From a virus (lineage: Duplodnaviria > Caudoviricetes), in IMG/VR virus record IMGVR_UViG_3300026088_000016, positions 8,251 to 72,250 of that record: 64,000 nucleotides of DNA; one strand, written 5' to 3'. Positions 3,211 through 43,042 of this stretch are shown in pieces. A program made the position numbers and the translations under genes. Below the pieces are notes generated by a model. That model saw only the letters and a program-made list of their open reading frames with translations, was not told the DNA's origin and did no database searches. The first letter of the stretch is position 1. Every line of letters starts with the position of its first letter.

Positions 3211-4068
3211 ATGTCCAAGTCAGCTCTGCTTTGGGTCACTTACAAAAAGGACCTGCCGTTCTTCGAGGCCAGCCTACGCTCCTACCAAAAGTTTGCGTCA
3301 GGCTTTGCCTACGCAAAAGTCATCGTCCCCCTTGATGACGTCCCGGACTTCCAGAAAATCTGTGACCCCGCGGGCGTAATCGTCGCTGGAATCGGCGAAC
3401 CGCCGGGCAAGGGAATGCTCATGCACATGGCGATGCAGATGCTCGGGGAGACTCATTTTCCAGCCGACGCCGGCTTCATTTTTCATATCGACGCGGACTG
3501 TGTTTTCAATCAGCCCACAACCCCGCAGGATTATCTCCCCGGAGACAAACCCATCATCTCTTTCCGAAACTGGGACAAGCTCCTGTCCCGGCCGGTGGAG
3601 CAGGATGAAGTGCAGACGTTCATGGGATTCACCGGGCGCACCATCGACTTCAACCGCGGCGCGTATCTCTGGAAGTTTGCGGCCGACTTCGCACTCGGAT
3701 TCGCGTCGCAGCGGCAGACCATGACCCAGATGCCCATCGTGCATCGGCGGGAGACCTACGCGCGGGCGCGGGCAATTATCCAGCGCCGGTTCAACACCGA
3801 CATCATCTCGCACGTTCTCCAAGGGCGGAACGAGTGGCCGCAGACGTTCTGCGAGTTCGAGACGCTCGGCACGGTGGCCCATCGTTATTTTCAGGACCGC
3901 TATCACTGGCATGAGCTCGACGTGCAGGGAACTTACCCGGTGCGGAACGTGACGCAGACGTGGTCGCACGGCGGACTCGACGCGACGGTCGAGCATGGCC
4001 GGCCACAAATCATTGCGGGGGTTCATCGTTCTCCGCGGGAATACTTCACCTCGCTGGGACTCCTATGA
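3211..4068 (+). CDS. GT-A-fold glycosyltransferase-like protein (paralog 1)
   Basis: FHIDADCVF DxD motif; N-terminal beta-alpha LLWVTY..DL; shares WSHGGLD with 4571-5398. Confidence 0.7.
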   Translation: MSKSALLWVTYKKDLPFFEASLRSYQKFASGFAYAKVIVPLDDVPDFQKICDPAGVIVAGIGEPPGKGMLMHMAMQMLGETHFPADAGFIFHIDADCVFNQPTTPQDYLPGDKPIISFRNWDKLLSRPVEQDEVQTFMGFTGRTIDFNRGAYLWKFAADFALGFASQRQTMTQMPIVHRRETYARARAIIQRRFNTDIISHVLQGRNEWPQTFCEFETLGTVAHRYFQDRYHWHELDVQGTYPVRNVTQTWSHGGLDATVEHGRPQIIAGVHRSPREYFTSLGLL

Positions 4069-4574
4069 ATGTGGTCCATAGCGTAAGCTTCCCTCGAAGC
4101 GGACACAGGTTCACCACGGAACTTTTGCAGGCTTACTTCGGGCCAGCGCTGGTGTATTCGGGAGAGCCCGCCCCGCCGGAGGCAAATTTCATCAAGCATC
4201 ACGACCAAGATGGCGCTCTGGAGGTTGACCCGAACGGACACTATCTGGTTCAGGTTCGCGACCCGTTCGACGCGGTCTGGTCGTGGTATAAGATGACGGT
4301 GGACCTCGACGGGATTCCGGACACCATTCAATCCTACCGCGGAATTTTCTTGGAGAAGCTGGACTATTGGACGGGGTTCATGCGGAAGTGGGTTCTCTCG
4401 GACCTTCCGAATCGGGTCATCGTGAAGTATTATGACCTTGTCACCCATCCGGCCAAATCCCTTCGTCGCGTCCTCCCGCTGTTCGGGGAATACCCGGACC
4501 GGGCCCGTGTAGAGAAGGCGGTGCGGGAAGTAGCGGTGATTGAACGTCGCACTCCAAATTTTTATTTGCAATGA
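4065..4574 (+). CDS. PAPS-dependent sulfotransferase
   Basis: 5'-PSB loop SFPRSG and 3'-PB motif VRDPFDAVWSW; ATGA overlap fixes start at 4065. Confidence 0.8.
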   Translation: MNVVHSVSFPRSGHRFTTELLQAYFGPALVYSGEPAPPEANFIKHHDQDGALEVDPNGHYLVQVRDPFDAVWSWYKMTVDLDGIPDTIQSYRGIFLEKLDYWTGFMRKWVLSDLPNRVIVKYYDLVTHPAKSLRRVLPLFGEYPDRARVEKAVREVAVIERRTPNFYLQ

Positions 4575-8238: not shown

Positions 8239-10312
8239 TACCACTGGGGGTATTAACGCTCCGGACTTGTCGCCGGCCGGCAAGCCGCAGCGCCGCGCTC
8301 TTTCGAGCATCTCGCAGATGCGGAATCTGATTTCTTCCCTGAAGACTGCCGCTCGCGAGCGCAACACTCGCAACGCGCGCATCGCGGCGAAATACAACTC
8401 GGAGAAACCGCATCGTCAGGAATCTCTCGAAGCGGATGGTCTCGGTTGGAAAAGCAATTTCACCACGAAGCCGCTGCCGATGCTGATTAACAAAGTCAGC
8501 CCGCGCTTGAAGAAGGCGCTCGACGCGGTCAAGTATCTCACCAACTCCAAACTTCCTGACGAAGTTCCGGGCGCCGCGGAGAAGACCGAAGCCTTCCGCC
8601 GGGAAATTACGACGCTCATTCGCTCACGCCCCGGGTGGAGCGACTTCCTCACCGAAATCAGCATGGAAGACGTGCTGTATGGTTTCGCGGCCGTCGCGTG
8701 GCTTGATGAATTCGGTTGGATGCCCAAATTTTTCCGACAAGACCAGTTCTACGTTCCTACCGGCAACAAGCAGGAAGCAGCCAAGACACAGCTCACCATC
8801 CTGAAGGACAAATATCTCATCCACGAATTGTTCTCGATGGTTGAAGACCGGGAAGCGGCCAAGGCCGCGGGATGGAAAGTCGAGAACACAATTGACGCCA
8901 TCAACAAGGCGATGCCCGACTACCGCCGGAACAAGTCTGATGGTTGGGAACGGGTTTACGAAGACCTGCAACGCGAAGCGAACGTCGGCCTGTCTCACGA
9001 AAACGGCGCGATGGTGATTTGTGTCTGGCACCTCTTCGCTCAAGAAGTGGACGGGAAAGTTTCGCACTACATCCTGACGGATGAGGGCGCTGGCAAGGAC
9101 TCGAAGGAGCTCCTGTTTGAGCGCGAAGACCAGTTTGAATCCATGCCCGACGCGCTGGCCCTTTTCGCGTTCGAGTATGGCAACGGCACGCTCCACGGTT
9201 CCAAGGGAATCGGCCGCGAAGTTTACGCGATGGCGGCGATGCTCGACCGCGCGCGTAACGAAGTTGTGGACCGGATGAATCTTGCCGGCAAGATTATCAT
9301 TCAAGGCGACGACAAAGCGCTTCGCCGGTTCAAGATGTCGATTGTCGGTAACGCCATTCTCATCGGACAGGGCTATCAGGTGACGGAGCGGAAAATCAAT
9401 CCGGACATCGAGTCCTACCTTCAGCTCGACCAATTTCTCACCTCTCTTCTCGACCAGATGGCAGGCGCGGTAACGCCAAAGGCGTTGGAAGGGGAGCGCG
9501 TCACAGCAGCGGCAGTAAATCTCCTCGCGAGTCGGGAAGAAGAGTCCCGGGATACCGTCACAGGCCGGTTTCTCACGCAGTTTGCCACAGCCCAGTCCAC
9601 GATTCAGAAGCGCATCTGCGACCCCAACGTGTCCGATGAGGACGCGAAGGCGTTTCAGAAGAAGATGCTCAACATCATGTCGCGCGAGGAGCTCACGCAG
9701 ATTGCCGGGATGCCGGTTGCGGAGACCGTCGCGGACTACACCACGATTGAGCGCCAGCAGATTGTTGCCATCGCCGCGGAGAACAAGGGCGACCCGCTTT
9801 TCAATCAGAAGGAGCTTCGCCGCCGCTCGATGTCGGCCCAGATTGACGACGAATTCGCGAACTCGGTTCTTCTTCCGGATGAAGACCCAACGATTGTCTC
9901 CGAGCAGACCCGGCTCCAGCAGATGGAAATGCTTTTGATTGCCGGACAGGGAACACAGGTTCCAGTTTCTCCGCGCGACAACCACGTCGTCCATCTTGGA
10001 ATTCTCATGCCGGCGCTCGAACAGGCCGCGCAAGTCACCGCGCAGCAGCCAGACGGTCTCCCGGTTTTGGAAGCCATCCTCGCGCACGCGCAGGCGCACC
10101 TTCAGGGCGCGGAGCAATCCGGCGTTCCCAAGGACCAACTCGCCCCCATCGCCAAAATCATCAACTCACTCGCTCAAGAGCTCCCGAAGTTGAAACAGAT
10201 TGCGGACGCTGAACAGGCCGCGCAACAGGCGCAGCAGCAGGTCCAGCTTGAAGACGCCGCCCATCAGGCCGGCGCCGCCGATGCCGCAGCCGGCAAGCCT
10301 CCACAGATTTAA
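8192..10312 (+). CDS. portal protein
   Basis: 706 aa, mostly helical, Q/A-rich coiled-coil C-terminus as in podovirus portals; lies between terL and scaffold. Confidence 0.72.
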   Translation: MLDDSKSGYNTSESVNTTGGINAPDLSPAGKPQRRALSSISQMRNLISSLKTAARERNTRNARIAAKYNSEKPHRQESLEADGLGWKSNFTTKPLPMLINKVSPRLKKALDAVKYLTNSKLPDEVPGAAEKTEAFRREITTLIRSRPGWSDFLTEISMEDVLYGFAAVAWLDEFGWMPKFFRQDQFYVPTGNKQEAAKTQLTILKDKYLIHELFSMVEDREAAKAAGWKVENTIDAINKAMPDYRRNKSDGWERVYEDLQREANVGLSHENGAMVICVWHLFAQEVDGKVSHYILTDEGAGKDSKELLFEREDQFESMPDALALFAFEYGNGTLHGSKGIGREVYAMAAMLDRARNEVVDRMNLAGKIIIQGDDKALRRFKMSIVGNAILIGQGYQVTERKINPDIESYLQLDQFLTSLLDQMAGAVTPKALEGERVTAAAVNLLASREEESRDTVTGRFLTQFATAQSTIQKRICDPNVSDEDAKAFQKKMLNIMSREELTQIAGMPVAETVADYTTIERQQIVAIAAENKGDPLFNQKELRRRSMSAQIDDEFANSVLLPDEDPTIVSEQTRLQQMEMLLIAGQGTQVPVSPRDNHVVHLGILMPALEQAAQVTAQQPDGLPVLEAILAHAQAHLQGAEQSGVPKDQLAPIAKIINSLAQELPKLKQIADAEQAAQQAQQQVQLEDAAHQAGAADAAAGKPPQI

Positions 10313-23395: not shown

Positions 23396-24727
23396 ATGGG
23401 TCAAGTTCTATCATCGGGCACGTCAATCATCTCCGGGGTGCTGGAGAAGCGCGCCGCCGACAAAGCGTATAACACGCAGAAACACGGCGTCATCAAGCAA
23501 CAGAAGTTGCTGGCGGATGAATACAACCCGGACCGCGTAAATACGCTGGTCAACAAGTATGACAAGGGCTTCCTCCAGAAGCGGCTCGATTTGCAGAAGG
23601 AGTTCGACCCGGAACTCTTCGCACTCCGCGAGCAGGGCAAGAAAAATCTCCTGACGGAGCTTGGCCGCGATAACGCGACCCGCATGTCGCAGAAAGTCGC
23701 GACGAAGCTGTTCGACGAGAACATCAACCCGAACGAAAGCTCGGAGAAGCTCAAGGACAAACTTTTCAATGAGGCCAACTCGGCTCTGGAGCAGGGTGCG
23801 TCTCTCCCGCCGGAATTTCAGGCGGAACTGGTCCGCTCAGGTCTCTCTGGTGCGGCCGGCAGCGGATTTACCCTCGACAAGAAGTCGATTGGCGGTCCTG
23901 TGGCGCACGCGCTCGGTTCGGAGGCCATCAAGCTCCAGCAGATGCGCCAGCAGCAGGCAATCCAGCTCGGGCAGGCCGGGCAGCAGCTCACTGACGCGCG
24001 CACTCGCATCCTGAGCAACATTTTTCCGACGATTCAGAATTCGGAGCAGACGGCCGAGGGTCGGAGCGCCGCGGCGTTCGCCATCGGCAACGAGAATCTC
24101 CCGAGTGGCGGTCTCACCGGCAAGGAAGCTCTGAGCTACGACATTGCCGGCAAGGAAGGCAATCGTCAGCTCACCGGTCAGAAGTATGACATGCGGGCGA
24201 ACAAGACCCTGCGTAACGCGGCCTTCACGAACAATCTCATCGGTCAGTTGGGGTCCGCAGGCGGACTCCTCTATACTCCGCAGCAATACGACACGGGCCA
24301 AGGCCCGGGAGTCGGTGGTCCAGTTGCAGCCCCGGCCGGAGGCGGCGGTGGCGGTGGAGACATGCTCGGTGGTTTGCTGGGCGGAGGCGGCGGTGGCGGT
24401 GGTGGCGGAGGCGGCGGTGGAATGAATATCAGTTCCATCATCGGACTCGCGGCCATGTTCTGCGACGCAACCATGAAGGAAGTGACCGGTCAGGTTTACC
24501 CGTCGGACATTCTCGCGAAAGTTCGTGAGCTCCCGATGAGCCGCTGGAAATACATCAACCCGGTTCTCGGCGAAGGAGAACACATCGGCACGATGGCTCA
24601 AGATTTTAACCGACTCTTTCCGAATGAAGGGGGCGACAAGGTGATTCCAATGGTGGACATCATCGGAGTATTGCTCGCCTCGGTTCAGGCCCTCGCGAAA
24701 AAAGTCGAACAGTTGGAGAAACGATAA
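23396..24727 (+). CDS. ejection/pilot protein with C-terminal S74-type intramolecular chaperone
   Basis: Q/A-rich helices, poly-Gly linker, CDATMK...WKY...HIGTMAQD...coiled coil. Confidence 0.75.
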   Translation: MGQVLSSGTSIISGVLEKRAADKAYNTQKHGVIKQQKLLADEYNPDRVNTLVNKYDKGFLQKRLDLQKEFDPELFALREQGKKNLLTELGRDNATRMSQKVATKLFDENINPNESSEKLKDKLFNEANSALEQGASLPPEFQAELVRSGLSGAAGSGFTLDKKSIGGPVAHALGSEAIKLQQMRQQQAIQLGQAGQQLTDARTRILSNIFPTIQNSEQTAEGRSAAAFAIGNENLPSGGLTGKEALSYDIAGKEGNRQLTGQKYDMRANKTLRNAAFTNNLIGQLGSAGGLLYTPQQYDTGQGPGVGGPVAAPAGGGGGGGDMLGGLLGGGGGGGGGGGGGGMNISSIIGLAAMFCDATMKEVTGQVYPSDILAKVRELPMSRWKYINPVLGEGEHIGTMAQDFNRLFPNEGGDKVIPMVDIIGVLLASVQALAKKVEQLEKR

Positions 24728-26479: not shown

Positions 26480-29400
26480 ATGCCCAACTCTGCCACATCG
26501 ACAGACCCCTTTGCGGGTCTGGAGGAAGTCAAAGCTCCGTCTTCGGCCGCTCCGGACGCATTCGCCGGACTCGAAGAGGTGAAGGCCCCGGAGGCGGACG
26601 CCTTCTCTGGCCTGAAGCCGGCGGACAATCTTGACTTGCAGGATGAGTCTTCACTTGCAGGAGACGACGCTTTTCGTCCCGCGCAGTTCATCGCAGAAAA
26701 TCCGGGTGTCGTCAATGAGCCGGACCGTTTCAAAAAGCTCATCAACGTCTATCGCCAGAAGCGGGTGACCGGTCTCAGCGCCGGCAAGGTTGCCGCGGCG
26801 GCGGTTCACGAAGCTCCCGGCGTCATCGCGAAGACAGTCAAGGGCGCAGGCCAGCTCATCAAGCGCGCGGTGGACATCGGTGTCCAGCCGGCCGCGAACG
26901 AAGTTCTCGGACTCGTCACCGGCACCAATATGGCGCCGCTCCGCGAGGAGACCCGCAAGGGACAACTCAAGGCAGCGGGTGAAATTGCCGCGGGCACTGA
27001 GCAAGCCGTCACAGGTCTCGCACAGCTCGGCGGGCAGGCCGCTCGAAAGCTTTTTGGCACCGCGCCGGACAAGCTTACGGACTCCGAGCTCTACGACCAG
27101 CTTCTGGTCGATTCCGAATTTCATAAGCAGACCAATCAGATTGCGCAGGGTAACAGTGACCTGTCGAAGTCGATTGGTCTCGACTCAGAGTTCCTGTCCA
27201 AGAACGGAGTCCAATTGGACCCGAAGGCGATTGAGAATCTCTCGCTGGTGGACCCGCTGACTCTGGTGGCGACCGCAGGTGTTTTCAAGGTGGTGGGGGT
27301 TGGAGGAAAAGTGATTGCTACCGCAGCGACCAAGCTGGGTGGAGAAGCAGTCATCAACGGTCTCAAGACGATTGCTGGAAAAAGTTTGCAAGCTGCCGGT
27401 CAGGTGGCCGCAGCGACCGGCAAGGTGATTCAGAAAGCTCCGCTCCGCACTCCAAGTGTGGCAGCGATTGGCGGAAGTCTGGCGACGGGGAATGTTCCCC
27501 ATGCAATCGCGGCGTCGGTTGTCCCCGCGGCGGTCCGCTTGGGCGGTCGCGCGCTCGAAGCCGGCGGACGAGTCGCGGCCGAAGTCGGTCAGGCGGCAGT
27601 TCCCGGGTTCATTGGTCCTCCGACCGCAGCAGCGGCGCGTCTCGCGCAGATTGCTGCCTCTCCGGCCGCTCAGGTGGTCAAAGGGGTGGCCAAGGGTGGC
27701 GCGGCTGGTGCGGCCCTCGCGGCTCCGTTAGCTCTCGCGGCCGACGAGAACCAGACGGCCGGCGCAATCCTCGGTGGTGGCGCAGCGCTTGGTGCAGTGG
27801 CCGGCGCGGCTCACGTTGGCGGAAAGATTGCCGGCAACGCCGTGGCCAACGTCGTGGCGAAGAAGTTTTTCGACCCGCACTCGATTCCTTTCGAGCCGGT
27901 TCAGTCCCCCGGCTACGGAGTGGACAAAGCATTGGATGCAACGCACGATGCGGCGATGCAGACCCTCTCAGCACCCGAGCAGAATGCTATCAATAATTTC
28001 CGGGAGGCTCTCCGCGCGCAAGGCGGCGAGATTTATGTGCAGGACCCGCAGGCTTATGCCGACCGGATTCGCCAAAGTCTTCAGGCTGAGAACGGCGGCG
28101 GTCCGCTGACCCCGGAGCAGGAAGCGAAAGCGACGGCGTATGCCGACACGCACGCGGAGTTCGACGGGTTCATCACGGACTCGAACGGCCAGCCGCGGCG
28201 AGTGGTCTTCCTCAACGGCGGCGCCAAGGGTCTCCCCCATGACGCGGGGCATCTTTTTCAGTCGCTGTTGGACCCACAGAAGCAGACGCAGCTTCGGGAT
28301 TCAGTTTTCCAGTCATACACGCCGGAGCAACTGAATGAGTTCGGCAAAGCCTACACGGACCGTCTCGGGGACCCGGAGTATTTCAACAAGCTCGGGGAAG
28401 AGGCCGGACGCAATAAGATTGCGGACGAAATCATCGCCGAGAACTTCAGCCAGTTGTTCGGGAATACCCCGCTCTCGGAGCTCAAGGGGCCCAAGTCATT
28501 CTTGGAGACCCTCGGACGCACTGCGGCGGAAGCCGGAGAATCCCTCGGTCTTGACCTGACTGGTGGTCGGACGACCCCAGACCTTCAGGCGACTCCTTCC
28601 ATCCGTCTCCAGAACGTGCTTCGGAATGCGTCCCGGGAAGTCCTGAACGCGCCGGCCACAAAGGAGAAGCTCACACTGACCAAGGCGACCGCGCCGGAGA
28701 AAGTTCCGACGGCCGCAGAGATTCCGGCAGTGTCCGCTAAACCAGACGCTATTCAACCGCCAGTGTCTGCTAAACCAGACGTTGCCGCAGAACGCGCGAA
28801 GGTCACGGGCATTGCTGAAGCCCGCGAGCTCACCAAGGATAACCCGGAGGCTTCGGCCACGGTGGATACCATTTCCAAGTCGATGGAGGCTGGGAATCCC
28901 GCGCTCAAGATTGAGCATCGGGGGATTACTTCCCAAGCCCCCGTCGGCCCACGCGGAGAAGCTCGTGGTCCTCGCCGCGGCACGCAGGAAGCCGGCTATG
29001 CCGAGTTGGAGCGGCTCCAGATTGAGAATCGTGCGAACGCGCCGGAGTCGGTCGTCTCGGTCCATGAGAAAACTTTTGTGCCGGTGCGTTGGGTGAATCA
29101 AGGTGGCAAGGCCACGCTCATCGCGATGTCGATGGACAAGATTCTCGGCAACATCCGGAAGATTACCGAAGAGGCCGCAGCGAAGAAGGCCGACAAACTC
29201 ATCCCCTACGAAAGCGTTGGTGGAGAACTCACGGAGAAGGGTTGGAATGAAGCTCTCGCCGATGTTAAGACGTATGCGGAAAATCAGTCTAATGGGTATC
29301 GTGGTGATGGGGCTCGTCTTGTCCGACCTAGCGATGAGGCCGGTGTCAGCATCCCGGCGGAGAATCCGAACTACACTCCGAAAACTCTCGGGGAAGCTCA

Positions 29401-32400
29401 GGCGAATTTCGCGAATCTCGTCCAAGGAATCGCACCGCCACAGACCGCGCGAATGGTCAAAGGACAAGTTCCCGGCAACGTCAAGGCGCAGCTCGTCGCA
29501 GAGGTAAACCAACGGGTCCCGCAGCCGGTCGCGAAGATTTCCCCCAAGGACATCACCAAGCAGACTTTTGGAAAGCCGTTCGAGGGACGCACCGTCAAAG
29601 AGACGAACCCCCTCCGCAATGAACTTTCGAGCAAGGGCGTCAACGTCCGGGCGCTGACCGAAGCGACGGAACGATTCGCCGCGCAAGACATCGCAAGTGT
29701 TGGCGAGGCCGCGCCAGAAGCGCAGATGAAGGCGCCCGTGACTGATGTCATCCGCGGGGGATTCCTCCCGGCCGGAAAGACGGTGGAACAGTTTGGGAAA
29801 GAAATTATCAGCCAGAGCGGAGATGACTGGCTGAAGACGGCGCAAAGTTTCAAAGGTGGGCTCACTCCAGAGGCGTATCGCCTTGGGCTCGGTCTCACTG
29901 ATGTCGCGGACGTGAAACGTCTGACGGACCTTCGAGATGAAGCGTTGGCGAAATATCGGGAAGAGATTACGGCGGGACGCGCGGAGGAGGCTTATCCGTG
30001 GACCACCAAGGCTCAATTTTTCTCGGAGGCCCTCGGAGCGGCAACAGATACTGGTAGCGCGGCCAATCCTCGGGTTGGATGGCGTCGAGTCATGCCAGAT
30101 GCGAAGGCCCCATTCCCGCAAGGGAAGGCCGAGCCCCGGCTCGAACAACTCCGCCCGGAACGTCTTTTCCTCCCCGCGGCGGACATTGAGAAAAGTTTGG
30201 ACCCAATCAAGCGCGCGGCGATTCGGACCCGTAGTGGAAAGATTTACGAGGGCTCGTGGCACGGTGAAGCCTACACCGAGTTTGCCGACGCGATTGCGCG
30301 CGGTGAAGCGAACGAGAAGCTCCCGCCGGGATTCTCCAGTCTGACTGACTTGCTGGACTCCGTCATGTCCGGCGACCTTGCTGCCGAAGGCGTGAAAGAT
30401 TTTGTCGAGGACGGTTTCGTGACCGAGAAGGGAAAGTTCCTGAATCGGGCGCAGGCGCTCGACCACGCGGAGAAGATTGGACAGTTGAAGGCTGGAGCTC
30501 CAGCAGAGAAGAACTCTGCGCGTGGCGAAGGCGTTCTGGAGTCGGCTGAGTTTGAGAACGAGCGGTCATTTCTCCCCAAGGGTGACAAGCCGATTCGTGA
30601 CCTTGCGTCCGAATACGCGAAGACTGCAAAGATTCCCTACACCCCGCACGAGACCTACACTCCGCTGAATCCCAAGCTCGGGGAGAAGCTGGCGGATTTC
30701 TACGACTCGGCGAAGTCAGACCCGACTGACCCGGCGGTCCAGAAGTCGTATCGCGCGCTGGCTGACGAGACCCTCGCACAATACAAGGCGATGACGGACG
30801 CGGGCTACACCATCGAACCGTTCAAGGGCGAAGGCGAGCCTTACAAGAACAGCGATGAGGCGATTGCGGACATCCGGGACAACAAGCACCTCTATTTTCT
30901 CCAGACCGAGAAGACGTATGGGGCGGAAGGCGAGGCGAAGACCTCGGCTAATCCCATGCTCGCGGACTCTGGAATCAAGATTGATGGACAGAAGCTTTTG
31001 GTGAACGACGTGTTCCGCGCCGTCCACGACTTTTTTGGTCACGGTAAAGAGGGCTATCAGTTTGGCCCCCGCGGCGAGTTCAACGCTTGGCGCGCTCACT
31101 CCGAGATGTTCTCTCCTGAAGCGCAGGGCGCGCTTGCCGCAGAGACGCTGGCCCAGAACTCATGGGTGAACTTCGGTAAGCAGGTCCGCGGAAAAGAACT
31201 CGCACTTAAGGACCGCCCGTTCGCAGAGCAGAAGGCCATCATCGTCCCGGATGAACTCATTCAGGAAGCGAAGAACCGGAATGCGGGGGAGATGAAGTTT
31301 CTCCCCTCGAAGGAGCCCCGGGCGATTAAGGACGCCGCGGTCCAAGACCCGGAGACGGGGAAGATTTACACAGGCCGGTATCACCTCGCGGCGTTCGATG
31401 AAGCCTCGAAAGCCGGGTTGCCGGAGAAGACACTCGAAAGGCTGGTTGATGGATTCGTCACTAATGAGGGGGAATTTCTAAATCGGGAGGATTCTTTTTC
31501 CCGGGCGGTGGAGTTGAAGCAAATTACCCCGGATGATTACCGGGAGCAGATTCAGGCATACAAGGACGAAGGAGTGCCAGTGGCGGACGTGCCGTCATCC
31601 TTGGAGAACACTCTCTTCAACGATGTCCGTTCTGACCAACGAAAAGCGTTCTTGCCCCGCAAGAAAGCCGGCGGCAAGGTGAATCCCGAAGACCTCACCA
31701 AGCGTGATGAGCAAGGTCGCCCGCTCACGCGCGGTGGACTCGTGGATTACACGAAGCTCTACGCGGAGAAGTCGAAGAAGGCCAAGGAGCAGGAAGCGGC
31801 CGACCTAGCGTCGATTCCGAAGAAATACTCGGTGTCGGAGAAGATGGAACCGCCCAAGGGTTCTCTCACCGGATGGGTGTTGCCGAATGATGAGTTCGTT
31901 CCACTTGATACTGCATATCACGAAGATTTTCTCGCTAAGAACTCGGAGCAGTTGAACAAGGAGTTCGGAACGAATCTGTCTTCAAAAGCGAACCCGGAGG
32001 AACGTCTGGGTGCGCTCCAAAAAGGTTTCGTCCGCGTGCGTTACACGCCAAATGACGGAACCGTCCGCATTGAAGCTGCCGCGAACAACTGGACTCCCAA
32101 AGTCCAGAAATCAATTCTCGACAAGCTGGAAGAGCATGAGAATTCTATCGCCCGCGTTTATGCGGCCGTGATGGATTCCAAGGGCAATGTTGTGGACTCG
32201 GTCTCAGAACGGGTGGCAGAGCTGGACGGGCCTGAACGAATCGCGGCGATGAAAGACGCGCTGTCGCAGCTCAAAGGCGCAACGACGGAACGCCCGAAAG
32301 GTGTTGGTCCGACCGACATCCAGCGCGCACGCGCGATGGGCCAGACCCGGGAGCCACAGTTTCTTCCGAAGCCCGGCACCAAAGAGTTCAACGACTACGT

Positions 32401-33754
32401 GGACGCGCGCATCAAGGACAGCAAGAAGTTTCCGGAAGCGCTCCCACTCGAATTTCGCAAGGACGAGTCCGGGGATTACCGCACCGGATTCAATGGCGAC
32501 GTTCTGCCCGTCTCCAAGGACTACGACCTCGCTGGCACTCCGCTCGCGAAGAAGTCCAAAGGCAAGACGCCAGAGCAGACCGAAGACAATTTCACCAGCG
32601 CACTCGCCAAGGGGCTGGAGAAGGAATACACGGAGGCCAAGAAGAACCCGTCCATCAAAGCTGGAGAGACGTGGTATAGCGTCTGCCGTGAGAAACTTCA
32701 GGCCCTTCTCGGTGAGGACACCAAGATGTTCGCGGAGCTTCTCGGCGCAACGTCGCCGCAGACCAACGTCGATGCCAACTTCGCCTTCGCACTCGACGCC
32801 TACAATCAATTCAAGCGGGGCGCCTACGACAAGATGCTGGAGAAGTATCGCGAGGGCAAAACCAAATTCAAGACGGGTGACTTGGATGAGTTCATTTCTG
32901 AGACCGGCAAGAAAGGCGCAAAAGCGACCTACGACGCCTTCATGTATTGGTGGGCCGAGAAGAACAATCTCGTTCCCACTCAGAGCAACGGGAAACGATT
33001 CGGGATGAACTCCCGCGCGGTCCTTCGTGTGCTCGACGGCTCATGGCTGGAGAACGTGAAAGGTCCCAAGACCCCGAACTTCACCGGCAACCTGACGGGC
33101 TCATCCTTCGAGGCGACAATCGACGTCTGGGCCATGCGGACCCTGCACCGGCTGGCGAATGAGGGCAACCCCAAACGCTGGCGGATTCAATCCGGCAACG
33201 AGACCGGGGTGACGGACTCCGACTTTTTCACCGGGCAGAAAGCTTTTCGTAAGGCGGCGGAAAAACTGGGTCTCCAGCCGGATGCGCTTCAGGCGATTCT
33301 CTGGTTCAACGAGAAGGACCTTTGGGAGAAGAACGGCTGGACGTCATCGGTCGGAAAGAAGAAATCCGACTACAACGTGTTGCTCCAAGCGACCGAGAAG
33401 ACGCCTGAGGGGTTGCTGAAGAAAGTTGACAAACAGCTCTCTTTCGACGACCGTTCTTTCTTGCCTATGAAAAAGAAAGACTACAAAACTGCGGTGGAGA
33501 AGGCCGGATTTGAATTTCGAGACTGGCTCGACATCCTGCCTAACGGACATGTTCTGTCGAACCCAGTTCCTCTGGTTCAGGTCCCCCGGGATGCCAAACC
33601 CCCGCCGGGATTCACTTTTCAGTGGTCCACGATTTTCTACGTCGAGGGTCACGACCATCCTAAAGGGACAAAGATTGTCGCAATGGTTGCGGCGCCGGCA
33701 GAGAAGTCGGTTGACAAGTCGGTGTCTCCCGGCGATATTGAAGGGAAAAAGTAA
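26480..33754 (+). CDS. giant modular ejection / polyvalent protein (2424 aa)
   Basis: N-terminal FAGLEE repeats, Ala/Gly-rich segment, HDAGH...EIIAE peptidase-like region, seven FLP-delimited C-terminal modules. Confidence 0.8.
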   Translation: MPNSATSTDPFAGLEEVKAPSSAAPDAFAGLEEVKAPEADAFSGLKPADNLDLQDESSLAGDDAFRPAQFIAENPGVVNEPDRFKKLINVYRQKRVTGLSAGKVAAAAVHEAPGVIAKTVKGAGQLIKRAVDIGVQPAANEVLGLVTGTNMAPLREETRKGQLKAAGEIAAGTEQAVTGLAQLGGQAARKLFGTAPDKLTDSELYDQLLVDSEFHKQTNQIAQGNSDLSKSIGLDSEFLSKNGVQLDPKAIENLSLVDPLTLVATAGVFKVVGVGGKVIATAATKLGGEAVINGLKTIAGKSLQAAGQVAAATGKVIQKAPLRTPSVAAIGGSLATGNVPHAIAASVVPAAVRLGGRALEAGGRVAAEVGQAAVPGFIGPPTAAAARLAQIAASPAAQVVKGVAKGGAAGAALAAPLALAADENQTAGAILGGGAALGAVAGAAHVGGKIAGNAVANVVAKKFFDPHSIPFEPVQSPGYGVDKALDATHDAAMQTLSAPEQNAINNFREALRAQGGEIYVQDPQAYADRIRQSLQAENGGGPLTPEQEAKATAYADTHAEFDGFITDSNGQPRRVVFLNGGAKGLPHDAGHLFQSLLDPQKQTQLRDSVFQSYTPEQLNEFGKAYTDRLGDPEYFNKLGEEAGRNKIADEIIAENFSQLFGNTPLSELKGPKSFLETLGRTAAEAGESLGLDLTGGRTTPDLQATPSIRLQNVLRNASREVLNAPATKEKLTLTKATAPEKVPTAAEIPAVSAKPDAIQPPVSAKPDVAAERAKVTGIAEARELTKDNPEASATVDTISKSMEAGNPALKIEHRGITSQAPVGPRGEARGPRRGTQEAGYAELERLQIENRANAPESVVSVHEKTFVPVRWVNQGGKATLIAMSMDKILGNIRKITEEAAAKKADKLIPYESVGGELTEKGWNEALADVKTYAENQSNGYRGDGARLVRPSDEAGVSIPAENPNYTPKTLGEAQANFANLVQGIAPPQTARMVKGQVPGNVKAQLVAEVNQRVPQPVAKISPKDITKQTFGKPFEGRTVKETNPLRNELSSKGVNVRALTEATERFAAQDIASVGEAAPEAQMKAPVTDVIRGGFLPAGKTVEQFGKEIISQSGDDWLKTAQSFKGGLTPEAYRLGLGLTDVADVKRLTDLRDEALAKYREEITAGRAEEAYPWTTKAQFFSEALGAATDTGSAANPRVGWRRVMPDAKAPFPQGKAEPRLEQLRPERLFLPAADIEKSLDPIKRAAIRTRSGKIYEGSWHGEAYTEFADAIARGEANEKLPPGFSSLTDLLDSVMSGDLAAEGVKDFVEDGFVTEKGKFLNRAQALDHAEKIGQLKAGAPAEKNSARGEGVLESAEFENERSFLPKGDKPIRDLASEYAKTAKIPYTPHETYTPLNPKLGEKLADFYDSAKSDPTDPAVQKSYRALADETLAQYKAMTDAGYTIEPFKGEGEPYKNSDEAIADIRDNKHLYFLQTEKTYGAEGEAKTSANPMLADSGIKIDGQKLLVNDVFRAVHDFFGHGKEGYQFGPRGEFNAWRAHSEMFSPEAQGALAAETLAQNSWVNFGKQVRGKELALKDRPFAEQKAIIVPDELIQEAKNRNAGEMKFLPSKEPRAIKDAAVQDPETGKIYTGRYHLAAFDEASKAGLPEKTLERLVDGFVTNEGEFLNREDSFSRAVELKQITPDDYREQIQAYKDEGVPVADVPSSLENTLFNDVRSDQRKAFLPRKKAGGKVNPEDLTKRDEQGRPLTRGGLVDYTKLYAEKSKKAKEQEAADLASIPKKYSVSEKMEPPKGSLTGWVLPNDEFVPLDTAYHEDFLAKNSEQLNKEFGTNLSSKANPEERLGALQKGFVRVRYTPNDGTVRIEAAANNWTPKVQKSILDKLEEHENSIARVYAAVMDSKGNVVDSVSERVAELDGPERIAAMKDALSQLKGATTERPKGVGPTDIQRARAMGQTREPQFLPKPGTKEFNDYVDARIKDSKKFPEALPLEFRKDESGDYRTGFNGDVLPVSKDYDLAGTPLAKKSKGKTPEQTEDNFTSALAKGLEKEYTEAKKNPSIKAGETWYSVCREKLQALLGEDTKMFAELLGATSPQTNVDANFAFALDAYNQFKRGAYDKMLEKYREGKTKFKTGDLDEFISETGKKGAKATYDAFMYWWAEKNNLVPTQSNGKRFGMNSRAVLRVLDGSWLENVKGPKTPNFTGNLTGSSFEATIDVWAMRTLHRLANEGNPKRWRIQSGNETGVTDSDFFTGQKAFRKAAEKLGLQPDALQAILWFNEKDLWEKNGWTSSVGKKKSDYNVLLQATEKTPEGLLKKVDKQLSFDDRSFLPMKKKDYKTAVEKAGFEFRDWLDILPNGHVLSNPVPLVQVPRDAKPPPGFTFQWSTIFYVEGHDHPKGTKIVAMVAAPAEKSVDKSVSPGDIEGKK
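33711..33739 (+). promoter_or_regulatory. promoter inside 3' end of giant gene
   Basis: TTGACA-17-GATATT upstream of ATG 33758. Confidence 0.5.
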
Positions 33755-34751: not shown

Positions 34752-36448
<1,697 letters not shown>

Positions 36449-37703
36449 GCTCTTACTGGACCAGCCGTCTCCCCAGAGGAGCGCGAGCCGGTCGAAGTAA
36501 GCCTGATACTGGTGCTTCACGGTCCTAATCGAATACTTCTCAACAGCTCGACTCCTGATGTAAAAGGGGTCGAGCTTTTTTACGTCCTCGATGGCTTGCA
36601 TGAACTCACCAAGGTAGTGACAACGAAAACCCGTGCGGCCTTGCTCCACCGTCTCGGTGAAACCGCCCCACGGCGTTGAGATGACGGGTGTGCCGCAAAG
36701 CTGGGCTTCGACCGCAACTTGGTTGAACGGTTCGATGTAAACCGTCGGAGTCAGGACCGCCCGGGCGCGCGACATCCAGTCGTTGCGCGTCTTCATGTCG
36801 AGCGCGCCGAGATACTCGGCCCCGTGAGTCACCAAAGACTTGTCACCGTGCCCGATGATTTTCAACGGAACCCCCGCGGCATCCGCAGCCCGGCAGGCAA
36901 TCTCCAGACCTTTTCTGGGCGTGAGCCGGCCAACGTAGAGCAAAAAATCTCCCCGCTCATTCCAGTGCCGAAAAGGAAACTCAAATTCGTCGTAGAAGCA
37001 GGGGATGACGGTGTCGAAGAATCGTCCGTTCGGGATTTGCTGTGCGCCGTAGCAGACGTGCTTCCACGCTTCGCTCTCGAACACCCGGTAGGGACCAAAA
37101 GAGCCGTTGTAGCCGATGGAATACTCGACGAACATCAAGTCCGGATGCGCGTCAGCGACGGGCTTCTGGGAGGAGCCTCCGATGCTGCAAATGAAGTCCC
37201 GCGGCTGCTTGCGCTTGGCGATTTCCTTGGCCATGCGCGCGTTGGCGAGCTGCCACAACGGGGACCACTCTTCCACGTAGGCATATTGGTAGGGCGTCGG
37301 CTCCGGCTCACCCTTCGCATTTTTTGTGCTGTTGAGCAGGGTCTCCTGTTCTTCCTTTCGGACGACTGTCACCAGCTCATCGCAGGGCGCCTCATTCTGT
37401 TCGGAGGCATAGAGGATGACTTCGTGGCCGAGCTGCTTCAGCAACTCGGCAAAGCGGATGGTGGCGACGCAGAACCCGCAGAGCGAATACGCGCGGGTGG
37501 TCTGGACGTTAGGAAGGGCCAGCAGGTGGATTCGATATTTGTTCATTGGAGTCCAATCGCGAGCCCGAAGACCCGGATTCCGTATTGCCAGTGGAAGAAG
37601 GCCCAGCTTCCGGGACCGACATGACGGGGGCAGCAATAGGCGATTTCAATCCAGCCGATGTGGATGGTCCAGACCGGACCATATTTCTGGTTCAATCGAA
37701 GTT

Positions 37704-37940
37704 TCACGAGCGCACCCCCAAGTCTCGAAGGTCCTCGGCCGAATAGACCCCCGTCAAGGTGTTGGGTGCGTCGTATTCGGTCTCGAAGTCCACGGCGACG
37801 GTCCGGGGCTTCTTCACCCTCCGGCCTTTCTCCGCGTCCTTGGCGTGACCGGTTGGATTGTTGAGTTGCTTGGCGAGACGGCGGGCTTTGGCCACTTCCA
37901 TCACGCTGTTCATTCGCTGGATTGTTGCTAAGTTAAACAT
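37704..37940 (-). CDS. hypothetical protein
   Basis: ORF preceded by TTGCAA-16-GATAGT-5nt-ATG. Confidence 0.55.
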   Translation of the reverse strand: MFNLATIQRMNSVMEVAKARRLAKQLNNPTGHAKDAEKGRRVKKPRTVAVDFETEYDAPNTLTGVYSAEDLRDLGVRS

Positions 37941-38259
37941 AGCTCACTATCGCACGGTCCGCGTGGATTGCAACCCTCTTTCGACGAATTTTTTCAAACC
38001 GGGAGATGAGCCCGGGGTCTTGGGATTCCGTTACGGACTCCCACAGTTCCTCGAACTGAAAACCCTCTTTGTCAGAGAGTTCCGTGCGGAGCAGAACGCA
38101 GTCCAAGCAGGTCTTGAACCTCATCGGCTCGCCGTCCCAGACTCCAGAGATGCGCTCATACTTTTCCCCGGGACGAATCTCTCCGCGGCACTCGCAACAA
38201 CGGTGCCGCTTCCGGGCGACCGGCGTCACGGTGCTACAACATTCAGGTCCGTCAATCAT
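37933..38259 (-). CDS. phage Zn-finger protein
   Basis: [17 protein letters not shown]...CLDC. Confidence 0.7.
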
Positions 38260-39233
38260 GGGGCGTGTCTCTGTTCGTGATACGCCAGTTCAAAATCAGC
38301 CTTCACCATCATGTTCACCAGCTCGGGGAAGCTCACCGACGGCTTCCATTTCAGAATCCGCTTGGCGCGTGTCGGGTCTCCGAGCAGCAGGTCAACCTCC
38401 GTTGGACGGAGCAGGCGCTGGTCGAATTCCACAAACTCTTTCCAGTTCATGTCCATCGCCGAAAAGGCCAGCGACAGAAACTCCCGGACAGTGTGAGTCT
38501 CACCTGTGGCAATCACGTAGTCACCCGGCTTTTCCTGTTGCAGCATCAGGTGCATCGCCTTGACGTAGTCGCCGGCAAAGCCCCAGTCACGCTTCGCGTC
38601 CAGATTGCCGAGCACGAGCTTGTGCTGGAGCCCATACCAGATTCGGCCGACGGCGCGGGTGATTTTCCGCGTCACGAAGGTCTCTCCTCGGCGGGGAGAC
38701 TCGTGGTTGAAAAGAACCCCGTTGCTCGCGTGGAGCCCGTAGGCTTCGCGGTAGTTGACGGTGGAGTGATGGGCCAGCACCTTGGCGCACCCATACGGAC
38801 TGCGCGGGTAGAAGGGCGTCGTGATTTTCTGCGGCGTCTCCACCACCTTGCCGAACATCTCGGACGAGCCGGCCTGATAGTAGCGCGCGTCCGGGCAACA
38901 GGTCCGGACCAGCTCCAGCAACCGGACGGCGCCAAGCCCGGTGGCGTCGGACGTGTAAACCGGCTGGTCGAAGCTCACCCGGACGTGTGACTGCGCGGCG
39001 AGGTTGTAAATCTCGTGTGGCTTCACCTTCAGTAGCACTTGCGCCATCGCGGTGACGTCGAGCAGGTCGCAGTAGTGAAGAACGACTCGTTTGAAAATGT
39101 GGTCGATTCGCGACGTGTTGAAAGATGACGAGCGCCGGATGGTGCCGTGGACCTGATAGCCGAGTTTGAGCAGGTGCTCGGCGAGGTAAGAGCCGTCTTG
39201 GCCCGTGATTCCAGTGATGAGCGCTTTTTTCAT
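38256..39233 (-). CDS. gmd: GDP-mannose 4,6-dehydratase
   Basis: [51 protein letters not shown]. Confidence 0.97.
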
Positions 39234-42400: not shown

Positions 42401-43042
42401 TCATCGTCGGTCCACTCCCTTTTTGTGAAGCGCTTTGCGGAGCTTGCCCAGCACCTCTTCGTGAATCTGGCGGACCCGTTCGCGCGTCATCTTCAGCCGG
42501 CGCCCGACTTCGGCCATGTTCAACCCCTCCTCATACATGAGGGACAGCACGAGTTGCTCGCGCTCTGAGAGCCCGGCCTTTCCGGATTCCAGAAGCCCGT
42601 GGATGTAGTCGGCGAAGTCAGTTTCCTCGGTCGGATGCTCCACACTGGTCTCAACCCCCGGGGAGGCGATGGAGATGAGCGGCATTTCTGGTGTCTCCGG
42701 GAGCGGCACAAAGCGGGCGGAGTCGCGCCACATCTTCGAGATGGCGCCGCGGATGAAGGGCCGCAGGTAGCTCGTGAACCGGTTGCCGCGCGTAGCATCG
42801 AATTGCTTGCGGTCCACGGCCTGAATCAGCGCCTCGTTGGCGGCGGAGACAACCTCGTCGTCGGGAAAACGGCCCCCGGCGCACTTCCGGGCCACGATGG
42901 CAACGAAAAGCAGGTGATGCTTGATGATGGTGTCGCGCGCGGCTTCGTCGCCGGCCTGCATTTTTCGGAAGAGTTCCTGTTCTTCCTCCCGCGTCGATTT
43001 AACGAATCGCAGGTTGGTGTTCACTGAGTAGTAGTTGCTCAT
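42401..43042 (-). CDS. sigma70-family RNA polymerase sigma factor
   Basis: Region 2 ALIQAV..FD.TRGNRFTSY..PFIRGAI; region 4 LSEREQ...MTRERVRQI. Confidence 0.9.
   Translation of the reverse strand: MSNYYSVNTNLRFVKSTREEEQELFRKMQAGDEAARDTIIKHHLLFVAIVARKCAGGRFPDDEVVSAANEALIQAVDRKQFDATRGNRFTSYLRPFIRGAISKMWRDSARFVPLPETPEMPLISIASPGVETSVEHPTEETDFADYIHGLLESGKAGLSEREQLVLSLMYEEGLNMAEVGRRLKMTRERVRQIHEEVLGKLRKALHKKGVDRR

Follow-up and report, generated by a model that had tools for sequence, protein, structure and literature searches.

A 64,000-nucleotide stretch of a tailed-virus genome (Caudoviricetes; IMG/VR record IMGVR_UViG_3300026088_000016, positions 8,251 to 72,250; below, the window) codes for a giant protein of 2424 amino acids (aa), P0001, in which the tripeptide FLP occurs seven times. 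What is this tripeptide for? The original prediction took it for a cleavage or recognition tag that releases separate effectors, or for a tag that allows cargo swapping. The window is phage DNA and the giant gene lies within its virion module. The gene product is a phage polyvalent protein, with several independently folding effector-type domains, a zincin hub and a location among virion genes. We suggest that it may be cleaved in the manner of a polyprotein at F-x-P by the zincin-type metallopeptidase (MPTase) embedded in it. As a combined statement this stands about level between right and wrong. Of its parts, cleavage by a protease of whatever kind is somewhat probable, and, given cleavage, the embedded zincin would be the likely enzyme.

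Translation of the single open frame at 26480..33754 reproduced the seven FLPs at F1095, F1230, F1364, F1607, F1724, F1961 and F2327, with the flanks reported for them. They are spaced by 135, 134, 243, 117, 237 and 366 aa, and 97 aa follow the last one to the C-terminus; the F1095 codon starts at nt 29762 and the seventh FLP ends at nt 33466. FLP is the most over-represented tripeptide of the protein (7 observed versus 0.45 expected from composition, Poisson P-value 5e-7, or ~4e-3 once corrected for 8000 tripeptides), and none of 20,000 shuffles gave seven copies, which agrees with the earlier estimate of under one chance occurrence. The codons are mixed (TTC/TTT, CTC/TTG/CTT, CCG/CCC/CCT) and, because they differ between sites, FLP is not a DNA-level repeat; this fits the earlier view that selection acts on the peptide. 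We considered FLP as a DNA repeat or recombination joint and rejected it on the same ground, the common stretch being merely 9 nt. YTP was tried as a second tag and also rejected: it occurs 5 times versus 0.19 expected, but its contexts are unrelated and none of the copies lies at a module boundary.

We found that FLP coincides with module boundaries. The AlphaFold2 model of aa 1590-2424 (mean pLDDT, the predicted local distance difference test score, of 82.5) contains four separate confident domains with coil between them. Coil of pLDDT<50 covers model residues 11-24, 126-145, 364-371 and 730-741; the FLPs at model residues 18, 135 and 738 lie within such coil and the FLP at 372 directly after it, so that no predicted domain straddles any of these four motifs. 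A search of 5.8 billion proteins yielded 252 relatives at E ≤ 1e-3, of which 120 were listed, and the protein was divided at its seven FLPs and each piece searched against these 120 (all module counts below are among them). The cargo pieces recur independently in relatives, in varied positions and orders, and many of the alignments begin at position 1 of the piece, which is the Phe. Together with the model of aa 1590-2424, this recurrence supports the earlier impression that the intervals are self-contained domains. Among 13,583 BLASTP high-scoring segment pairs (HSPs) inside cargo regions, starts fall exactly on the motif Phe in 9.3% of cases versus 0.5% at random positions (~18x), and within -2..+10 of the Phe in 27% versus 5.8%; HSP ends accumulate just past the next motif. 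Homologues thus keep the motif and swap modules at it; this outcome and the lack of straddling domains both favour the original prediction. Around the tag the residues are hydrophilic and show a weak pattern (small or Arg at -2, K/G/Q/S at -1, K/R/G/A at +3, then an acidic/basic stretch).

Tags are found in the cargo half only. Among 49 full-length proteins of the FLP class, which are mutually related so that the effective sample is smaller and independence is overstated, FLP is absent from the N-terminal halves (0 versus 9.0 expected) and strongly enriched in the cargo halves (280 versus 12.5 expected). The deficit has the direction predicted by a protease-site model. The tripeptide of the other class is not enriched: FQP occurs in FLP-class cargo 2 times versus 5.9 expected, and FLP in FQP-class cargo 9 times versus 4.2.

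The family in which this was observed comprises ~200 metagenomic homologues of 2000-3600 aa, mostly on phage contigs of ~70 kb. The relatives listed are mostly 2000-3300 aa long, many on contigs of that size; an exhaustive HMMER search with the peptidase domain against 1.8 billion representative proteins added 86 representatives, which include a large FMP group and one protein with six YMP. The N-terminal ~1100 aa are common to the relatives, and the C-terminal cargo sets differ and are shuffled, with GNAT acetyltransferases, methyltransferases, ART-PolyVal and a phosphatase among the cargo domains of homologues. Many relatives carry 4-9 FLPs, which in full-length relatives all lie beyond ~residue 1100. 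In FLP-less relatives the top tripeptide is FQP (up to 10 copies), FMP (up to 7), FSP (7), FKP (5), YLP or FSV, likewise restricted to the cargo half. Of the 197 family proteins with 1300 aa or more, 89 have a significantly recurrent [F/Y]xP (FLP in 42, FMP in 25, FQP in 17, and FKP, FSP, YLP, YMP and FDP in 1 each), with a median of 6 sites per protein and a median spacing of 154 aa, approximately the size of a domain. The column of the first site, where a tag follows '...APVTDxIRGG', reads FLP in 54 of 110 homologues, FQP in 23, FS(V/-) in 11 and FMP in 5, with rarer FSP (2), YLP (2), LLP (2) and FKP (1). An FSV clade exists beside the [F/Y]xP lineages.

Homologous modules bear the tag of the protein that carries them. 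The FKP at residue 1272 of P0031 aligns with the FLP at 1364 of P0001 (101 aa aligned, 53% identity). FLP-class relatives likewise have FLP at the positions that correspond to four FSP sites of P0032 and three FQP sites of P0042. One protein, P0116, has FLP and FMP mixed. In a tree of the conserved core the motif classes are strongly clustered, and a smaller core tree (30 rows, seven classes) requires a minimum of six class changes. Two positions of the tag, Phe (rarely Tyr or Leu) and Pro, stay constant while the middle residue shifts at every site of a protein together. This concerted change points to many sites being read by one shared recogniser, acting in trans or in cis, and it goes beyond the case made in the original prediction, whose recognition-tag part is supported. 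Its other part, the tag as a mechanism of cargo swapping, is unsupported: codons vary from site to site and a stretch of 9 nt is too short to drive recombination, though swaps do end at the tag.

Where the cargo array begins, eight relatives (P0005, P0007, P0008, P0012, P0014, P0028, P0036 and P0075) have two tags in tandem at a distance of 8-14 aa, in the pattern '...IRGGFLP...(about 10 aa)...R.GFLPD.KPS.P.PS'. Cleavage at both tags would release a very short spacer peptide.

A candidate for the shared recogniser lies in the N-terminal half of the same polypeptide. The AlphaFold2 model of aa 440-760 has a pLDDT of ~88-97 across ~470-690, and its best structural matches are M34-type zincins (anthrax lethal factor, LF, and PPEP-1/2/3; Z 7.7-8.2 over 152-166 residues). 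In the VIA-align comparison with representatives, the top seven matches are all of the anthrax LF/PPEP type (Z 6.8-8.2), including the Certhrax N-domain (Z 8.2), the LF catalytic domain (7.8), PPEP-2 (7.8, 152/185 residues) and PPEP-3 (7.7); the next unrelated fold scores Z 5.6. With M34 zincins the P0001 family shares an HExxH-type motif (here H-[E/D]-x-x-H) and a Glu on a later helix. H587 and H591 are invariant in 78/78 aligned homologues, E650 is Glu in all 66 rows that cover it, and A653 and E654 are nearly invariant. By profile search the motif pair is present in every relative that reaches the region, except the 3344-aa P0120. Among the 1.8 billion representative proteins this MPTase domain type is restricted to the giant-protein family, and Pag-Yong1, a Planktothrix phage with a giant protein of its own, gives a marginal match of the HExxH region.

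PPEPs cleave before Pro, and LF needs a hydrophobic P1' residue. By analogy, PPEP-type and LF-type specificities are both of a kind that could read F-x-P. The second His and the Glu are spaced by 59 residues in P0001 versus ~39-45 in PPEP-1 and LF, and, unlike M34 zincins, P0001 has Asp at the place of the catalytic Glu.

We propose the following scheme. The N-terminal ~1100 aa hold a Gly/Ala-rich region, the zincin-type metallopeptidase domain and a conserved core, followed by seven cargo modules on flexible linkers, each linker ending in an F-L-P that would serve as a recognition and cleavage tag. The LF/PPEP-like metallopeptidase would bind every F-x-P and cut at or beside it, in cis or between copies, the scissile bond probably being before Phe (with a thermolysin/LF-like hydrophobic S1') or before Pro (PPEP-like). 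The cargo array would thereby be freed as separate proteins, in the capsid or, more likely, after delivery to the host. Protease pocket and tags would co-evolve: a change of the pocket in a lineage would be followed by change of all its tags (FLP, FQP, FMP, FKP, FSP, YLP, YMP), and a module gained by recombination would have to bring or acquire the resident tag.

Several observations weigh against cleavage by the embedded zincin. Residue 588 is Glu in 50 of the 78 aligned homologues and Asp in 28 (P0001 and 27 relatives), the HDAGH form being limited to a subclade, part of the FLP class; with Asp as the general base, HDxxH might weaken or abolish catalysis. A Foldseek search of PDB with the MPTase model gave no match at E ≤ 0.001 (best, anthrax LF at E 0.077), Pfam returned no peptidase match, and the structural resemblance to M34 zincins is of middling strength (Z ~8), only moderately above background. 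A scan of MPTase columns against motif class gave three weak, inconsistent columns (479, 509 and 512), none of which track class, so co-evolution of the tags with that domain is not demonstrated. Approximately half of the family proteins have no single significant tripeptide; the first site of some of these nevertheless reads FQP, FSV or YLP. Motif class mostly follows clade. For the most conspicuous nested switch, that of P0042 with 8 FQP sites within the FLP clade, a single FQP origin is not rejected (approximately unbiased test, P-value 0.2), and the P0042 gene runs off the contig end, which leaves its MPTase region unreadable. Finally, the N4 virion RNA polymerase has an MPTase domain and yet is packaged unprocessed (PMC5512222).

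Concerted variation requires one recogniser, protease or not. F-x-P could therefore be a non-proteolytic docking motif for a common partner (the capsid interior, the portal or core, a chaperone or a host factor) that organises or threads an uncut cargo, the zincin having another role, e.g. at the cell envelope, or being inactive. The HDxxH motif is compatible with a role in binding only, the N4 polymerase retains its MPTase region and remains uncut, and tags set in tandem in some homologues resemble avidity rather than the release of a useful product. However, a tethered array has no obvious need for one dock per module exactly at the boundaries, the absence of FLP from N-terminal halves better fits avoidance of protease sites, and no candidate partner was identified. 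We consider docking doubtful.

Cleavage by another protease, either of the host or an unrecognised phage-encoded one (e.g. a capsid-maturation protease among the unannotated structural genes), is unlikely. The evidence from boundaries, avoidance and concerted change would suit any dedicated protease, and to this are added the Asp of the P0001 zincin motif, the lack of MPTase columns that consistently track class and the many structural open reading frames (ORFs) without a family assignment. However, no other peptidase family was detected across 30 further ORFs of the window, bar a self-cleaving S74 chaperone domain, and the zincin co-occurs with the tagged cargo array in the homologues that reach it and nowhere else. 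With a host protease, moreover, it would be hard to see why phage proteins so closely related carry several variants of the tag.

That F-x-P is a passive feature without a recogniser (a domain cap or a favoured way to end a linker, a signal for co-translational pausing, or a remnant of recombination at the junction) is most improbable: hydrophilic Pro-containing linkers are common and module swaps do end at the tag, but such a feature would not hold Phe and Pro while the middle residue changes at all sites jointly, the differing codons leave no DNA-level repeat, and the motif is missing from distant polyvalent proteins in which module m2 is also found.

The proposed cleavage at F-x-P by the embedded zincin has parallels in known systems. 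MPTase domains were proposed to process polyvalent proteins into functional units (Iyer, Burroughs, Anand, de Souza and Aravind 2017, PMC5512222). The polyvalent proteins described there are, like P0001, giant and multidomain, encoded among late or virion genes, and have an HExxH...E MPTase followed by a variable effector array. Unlike them, the P0001 family has a specific tag at each module boundary, concerted between lineages, and a family-restricted MPTase variant, HDxxH in P0001. That paper names no site (the phrase 'cleavage site' occurs in it only in the reference list), and our literature search found no report of a boundary tag. Already in the literature are polyvalent proteins with their MPTase domains and the notion that they process themselves; new are the defined tag at every module boundary, its co-variation over a family of ~200 proteins and its pairing with a family-specific zincin.

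In T4, in phiKZ-like/SPN3US jumbo phages and in viral polyproteins, a short site for a virus-encoded protease recurs in the processed proteins (head-packaged ones in the phages), with site and protease matched. These phage systems use a separate prohead serine protease that acts on many proteins. Unlike these, P0001 holds the candidate metalloprotease and all sites in one polypeptide, one site per boundary, in the style of an RNA-virus polyprotein. Among the large polyvalent virion proteins of podophages, phi24B gp47 (2811 aa) also has a metallopeptidase domain; it was detected proteomically in virions and is proposed to be an ejection protein (bioRxiv 10.64898/2026.04.10.717836). It differs in its domain set (LPD1/5/38, MuF-C), and no boundary tag or processing is reported for it. 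By analogy with phi24B gp47, and from its gene context, P0001 may likewise be a virion-packaged ejection protein. Module m2 of P0001 is shared by the giant proteins of Planktothrix phage Pag-Yong1 and of Octadecabacter virus BD1, which have no FLP.

F-x-P offers the 2017 self-processing proposal a concrete and easily mutated candidate cleavage site, and the natural 'allelic series' of FLP, FQP, FMP and others predicts that protease and site specificities can be swapped. If the scheme is true, a tailed DNA phage uses the polyprotein strategy with its own matched protease; the free exchange of cargo is explained, since any domain behind a tag gets released; and the short orthogonal protease/site pairs would be usable as tools.

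The bacterial ClpS/ClpAP N-degron can be formed by Phe, Tyr or Leu, among other residues. A cut before the first tag residue would leave each freed effector beginning with Phe, Tyr or Leu and thus with a built-in short lifetime. One can extend this to orthogonal 'processing codes' (FLP, FQP, FMP, FKP, FSP, YLP, YMP), in which each protease would cut its own polyprotein only, the pressure to switch code would come from anti-phage proteases or inhibitors of the host or from rivalry between co-infecting phages, and the Phe/Tyr/Leu starts would make the effectors short-lived; we regard this extension as quite unlikely.

The coordinates of the giant gene, its parts and other genes of the window are collected in the table.

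Table. Parts of the giant gene and selected other features of the 64,000-nt window.
Feature	Position in window (nt)	Strand	Remarks
Giant polyvalent virion protein gene (P0001)	26480..33754	+	Single open frame, 2424 aa, stop codon included
Zincin-like MPTase domain, aa ~470-690, candidate processing protease	27887..28549	+	AlphaFold2, VIA-align
H587-D-A-G-H591	28238..28252	+	HExxH-type zinc-binding motif, Asp in place of the catalytic Glu
E650-I-I-A-E654 helix ('E..AE[NV]F')	28427..28441	+	E650 presumed third zinc ligand
Highly conserved core, aa ~780-1094	28817..29761	+	Family consensus; ends '...APVTDVIRGG' right before the first FLP
FLP site 1 (F1095)	29762..29770	+	Border between conserved N-terminal half and cargo array
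Module m0 (aa 1095-1229)	29762..30166	+	78/120 listed homologues; positions vary, class motif usually at start
FLP site 2 (F1230, nt 30167-30175) and m1 (aa 1230-1363)	30167..30568	+	43 listed homologues
FLP site 3 (F1364, nt 30569-30577) and m2 (aa 1364-1606)	30569..31297	+	PHROG 3170 (function unknown); 92 listed homologues
FLP site 4 (F1607, nt 31298-31306) and m3 (aa 1607-1723)	31298..31648	+	FLP in pLDDT<50 coil, confident domain next
FLP site 5 (F1724, nt 31649-31657) and m4 (aa 1724-1960)	31649..32359	+	FLP in pLDDT<50 coil; 99 listed homologues
FLP site 6 (F1961, nt 32360-32368) and m5 (aa 1961-2326)	32360..33457	+	DUF7178, HhH-GPD glycosylase-like fold (predicted)
FLP site 7 (F2327, nt 33458-33466) and small C-terminal m6 (aa 2327-2424)	33458..33751	+	FLP in pLDDT<50 coil
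Serine recombinase	322-1089
Sulfotransferase-like protein	3960-4574
Virion protein ending in Peptidase_S74 intramolecular-chaperone domain	23396-24727		Pfam E 1.4e-7, aa 357-412
GT4 glycosyltransferase and GDP-mannose 4,6-dehydratase	36380-39233		Adjoin collagen-like fibre genes
Sigma-70-type factor	42401-43042

What are the modules behind the tags? With Pfam, DUF7178 (PF23802; aa 2039-2276, 42.3 bits versus a cutoff of 27) was the sole match over the whole protein, and PHROGs added three families of unknown function. DUF7178 lies in m5, the near-universal last large module (114/120 listed homologues). VIA-align places the m5 model at Z 9.0 to Tm1821, the Thermotoga 8-oxoguanine glycosylase (3n0u_A), and every chain at ranks 1-22 belongs to HhH-GPD or DUF2419. 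The fold of m5 is thus predicted to be HhH-GPD DNA-glycosylase-like. A sequence search of m2, m4 and m5 against PDB chains gave no match.

Module m2 is also found in otherwise unrelated giant proteins of cyanophages (Pag-Yong1, MinM2), of Octadecabacter virus BD1 (gp16) and of uncultured Caudoviricetes, as well as in ~200 mycobacteriophage genomes, e.g. in Rizal gp102, whose gene is annotated as coding for a hypothetical protein. These distant matches begin at aa 1369-1376, 5-12 residues past the FLP, and the m2-bearing proteins of Pag-Yong1 and BD1 (gp16) have neither FLP nor another strongly recurrent tripeptide. An ESM Atlas feature search with m2 gave no usable match.

Modules m1 and m3 are paralogous (29% identity over 144 columns, E 3e-8, with 'DGFVT.EG.FLNR' in both), so one small domain is present twice in the array. 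Many alignments of m1 start at position 1 of its hidden Markov model, the Phe, and the homologous starts are FSP or FSV in other lineages. The last module, m6, is a beta-rich domain after the FLP and occurs elsewhere among the listed homologues only in P0013.

The core that precedes the first FLP is the most conserved stretch of the family ('EIEHxG...HQKTFVPVRW...NQxNGxRGDG...NPLRNEL...') and matches no known family. In the region of aa ~300-500 Gly and Ala make up 41-42% and charged residues are scarce. The extreme N-terminus (aa 1-70, window 26480-26690) has 3-4 copies of a short D-[AP]-F-[AS]-G-L repeat (DPFAGLEEVKAP / DAFAGLEEVKAP / DAFSGLKP), which could act in docking or packaging as a second linear motif. 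In many relatives (e.g. P0021, P0025, P0028 and P0034) the top-enriched tripeptide is TPE/SPE; its 6-9 copies lie mainly in the N-terminal half and may serve as helix N-caps. GC content at third codon positions of the giant gene is 0.69, near the value of the neighbouring genes. An antisense ORF (28496-30466, 656 aa) was considered as a gene and rejected as a shadow ORF, its codon-position GC mirroring the sense frame.

Next to the giant gene lie collagen-like tail-fibre genes, the gene of the S74-chaperone protein and a weak match to an 'internal virion protein'. The S74 domain is of the kind typical for self-cleaving fibre or spike proteins. The place of the giant gene in the gene order matches that in Octadecabacter virus BD1, where the giant gene lies between 'lysozyme' gp15 and tailspike gp17. 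The remaining half of the window codes for DNA polymerase A, a helicase, exonucleases and a sigma factor. The serine recombinase suggests that the phage is possibly temperate.

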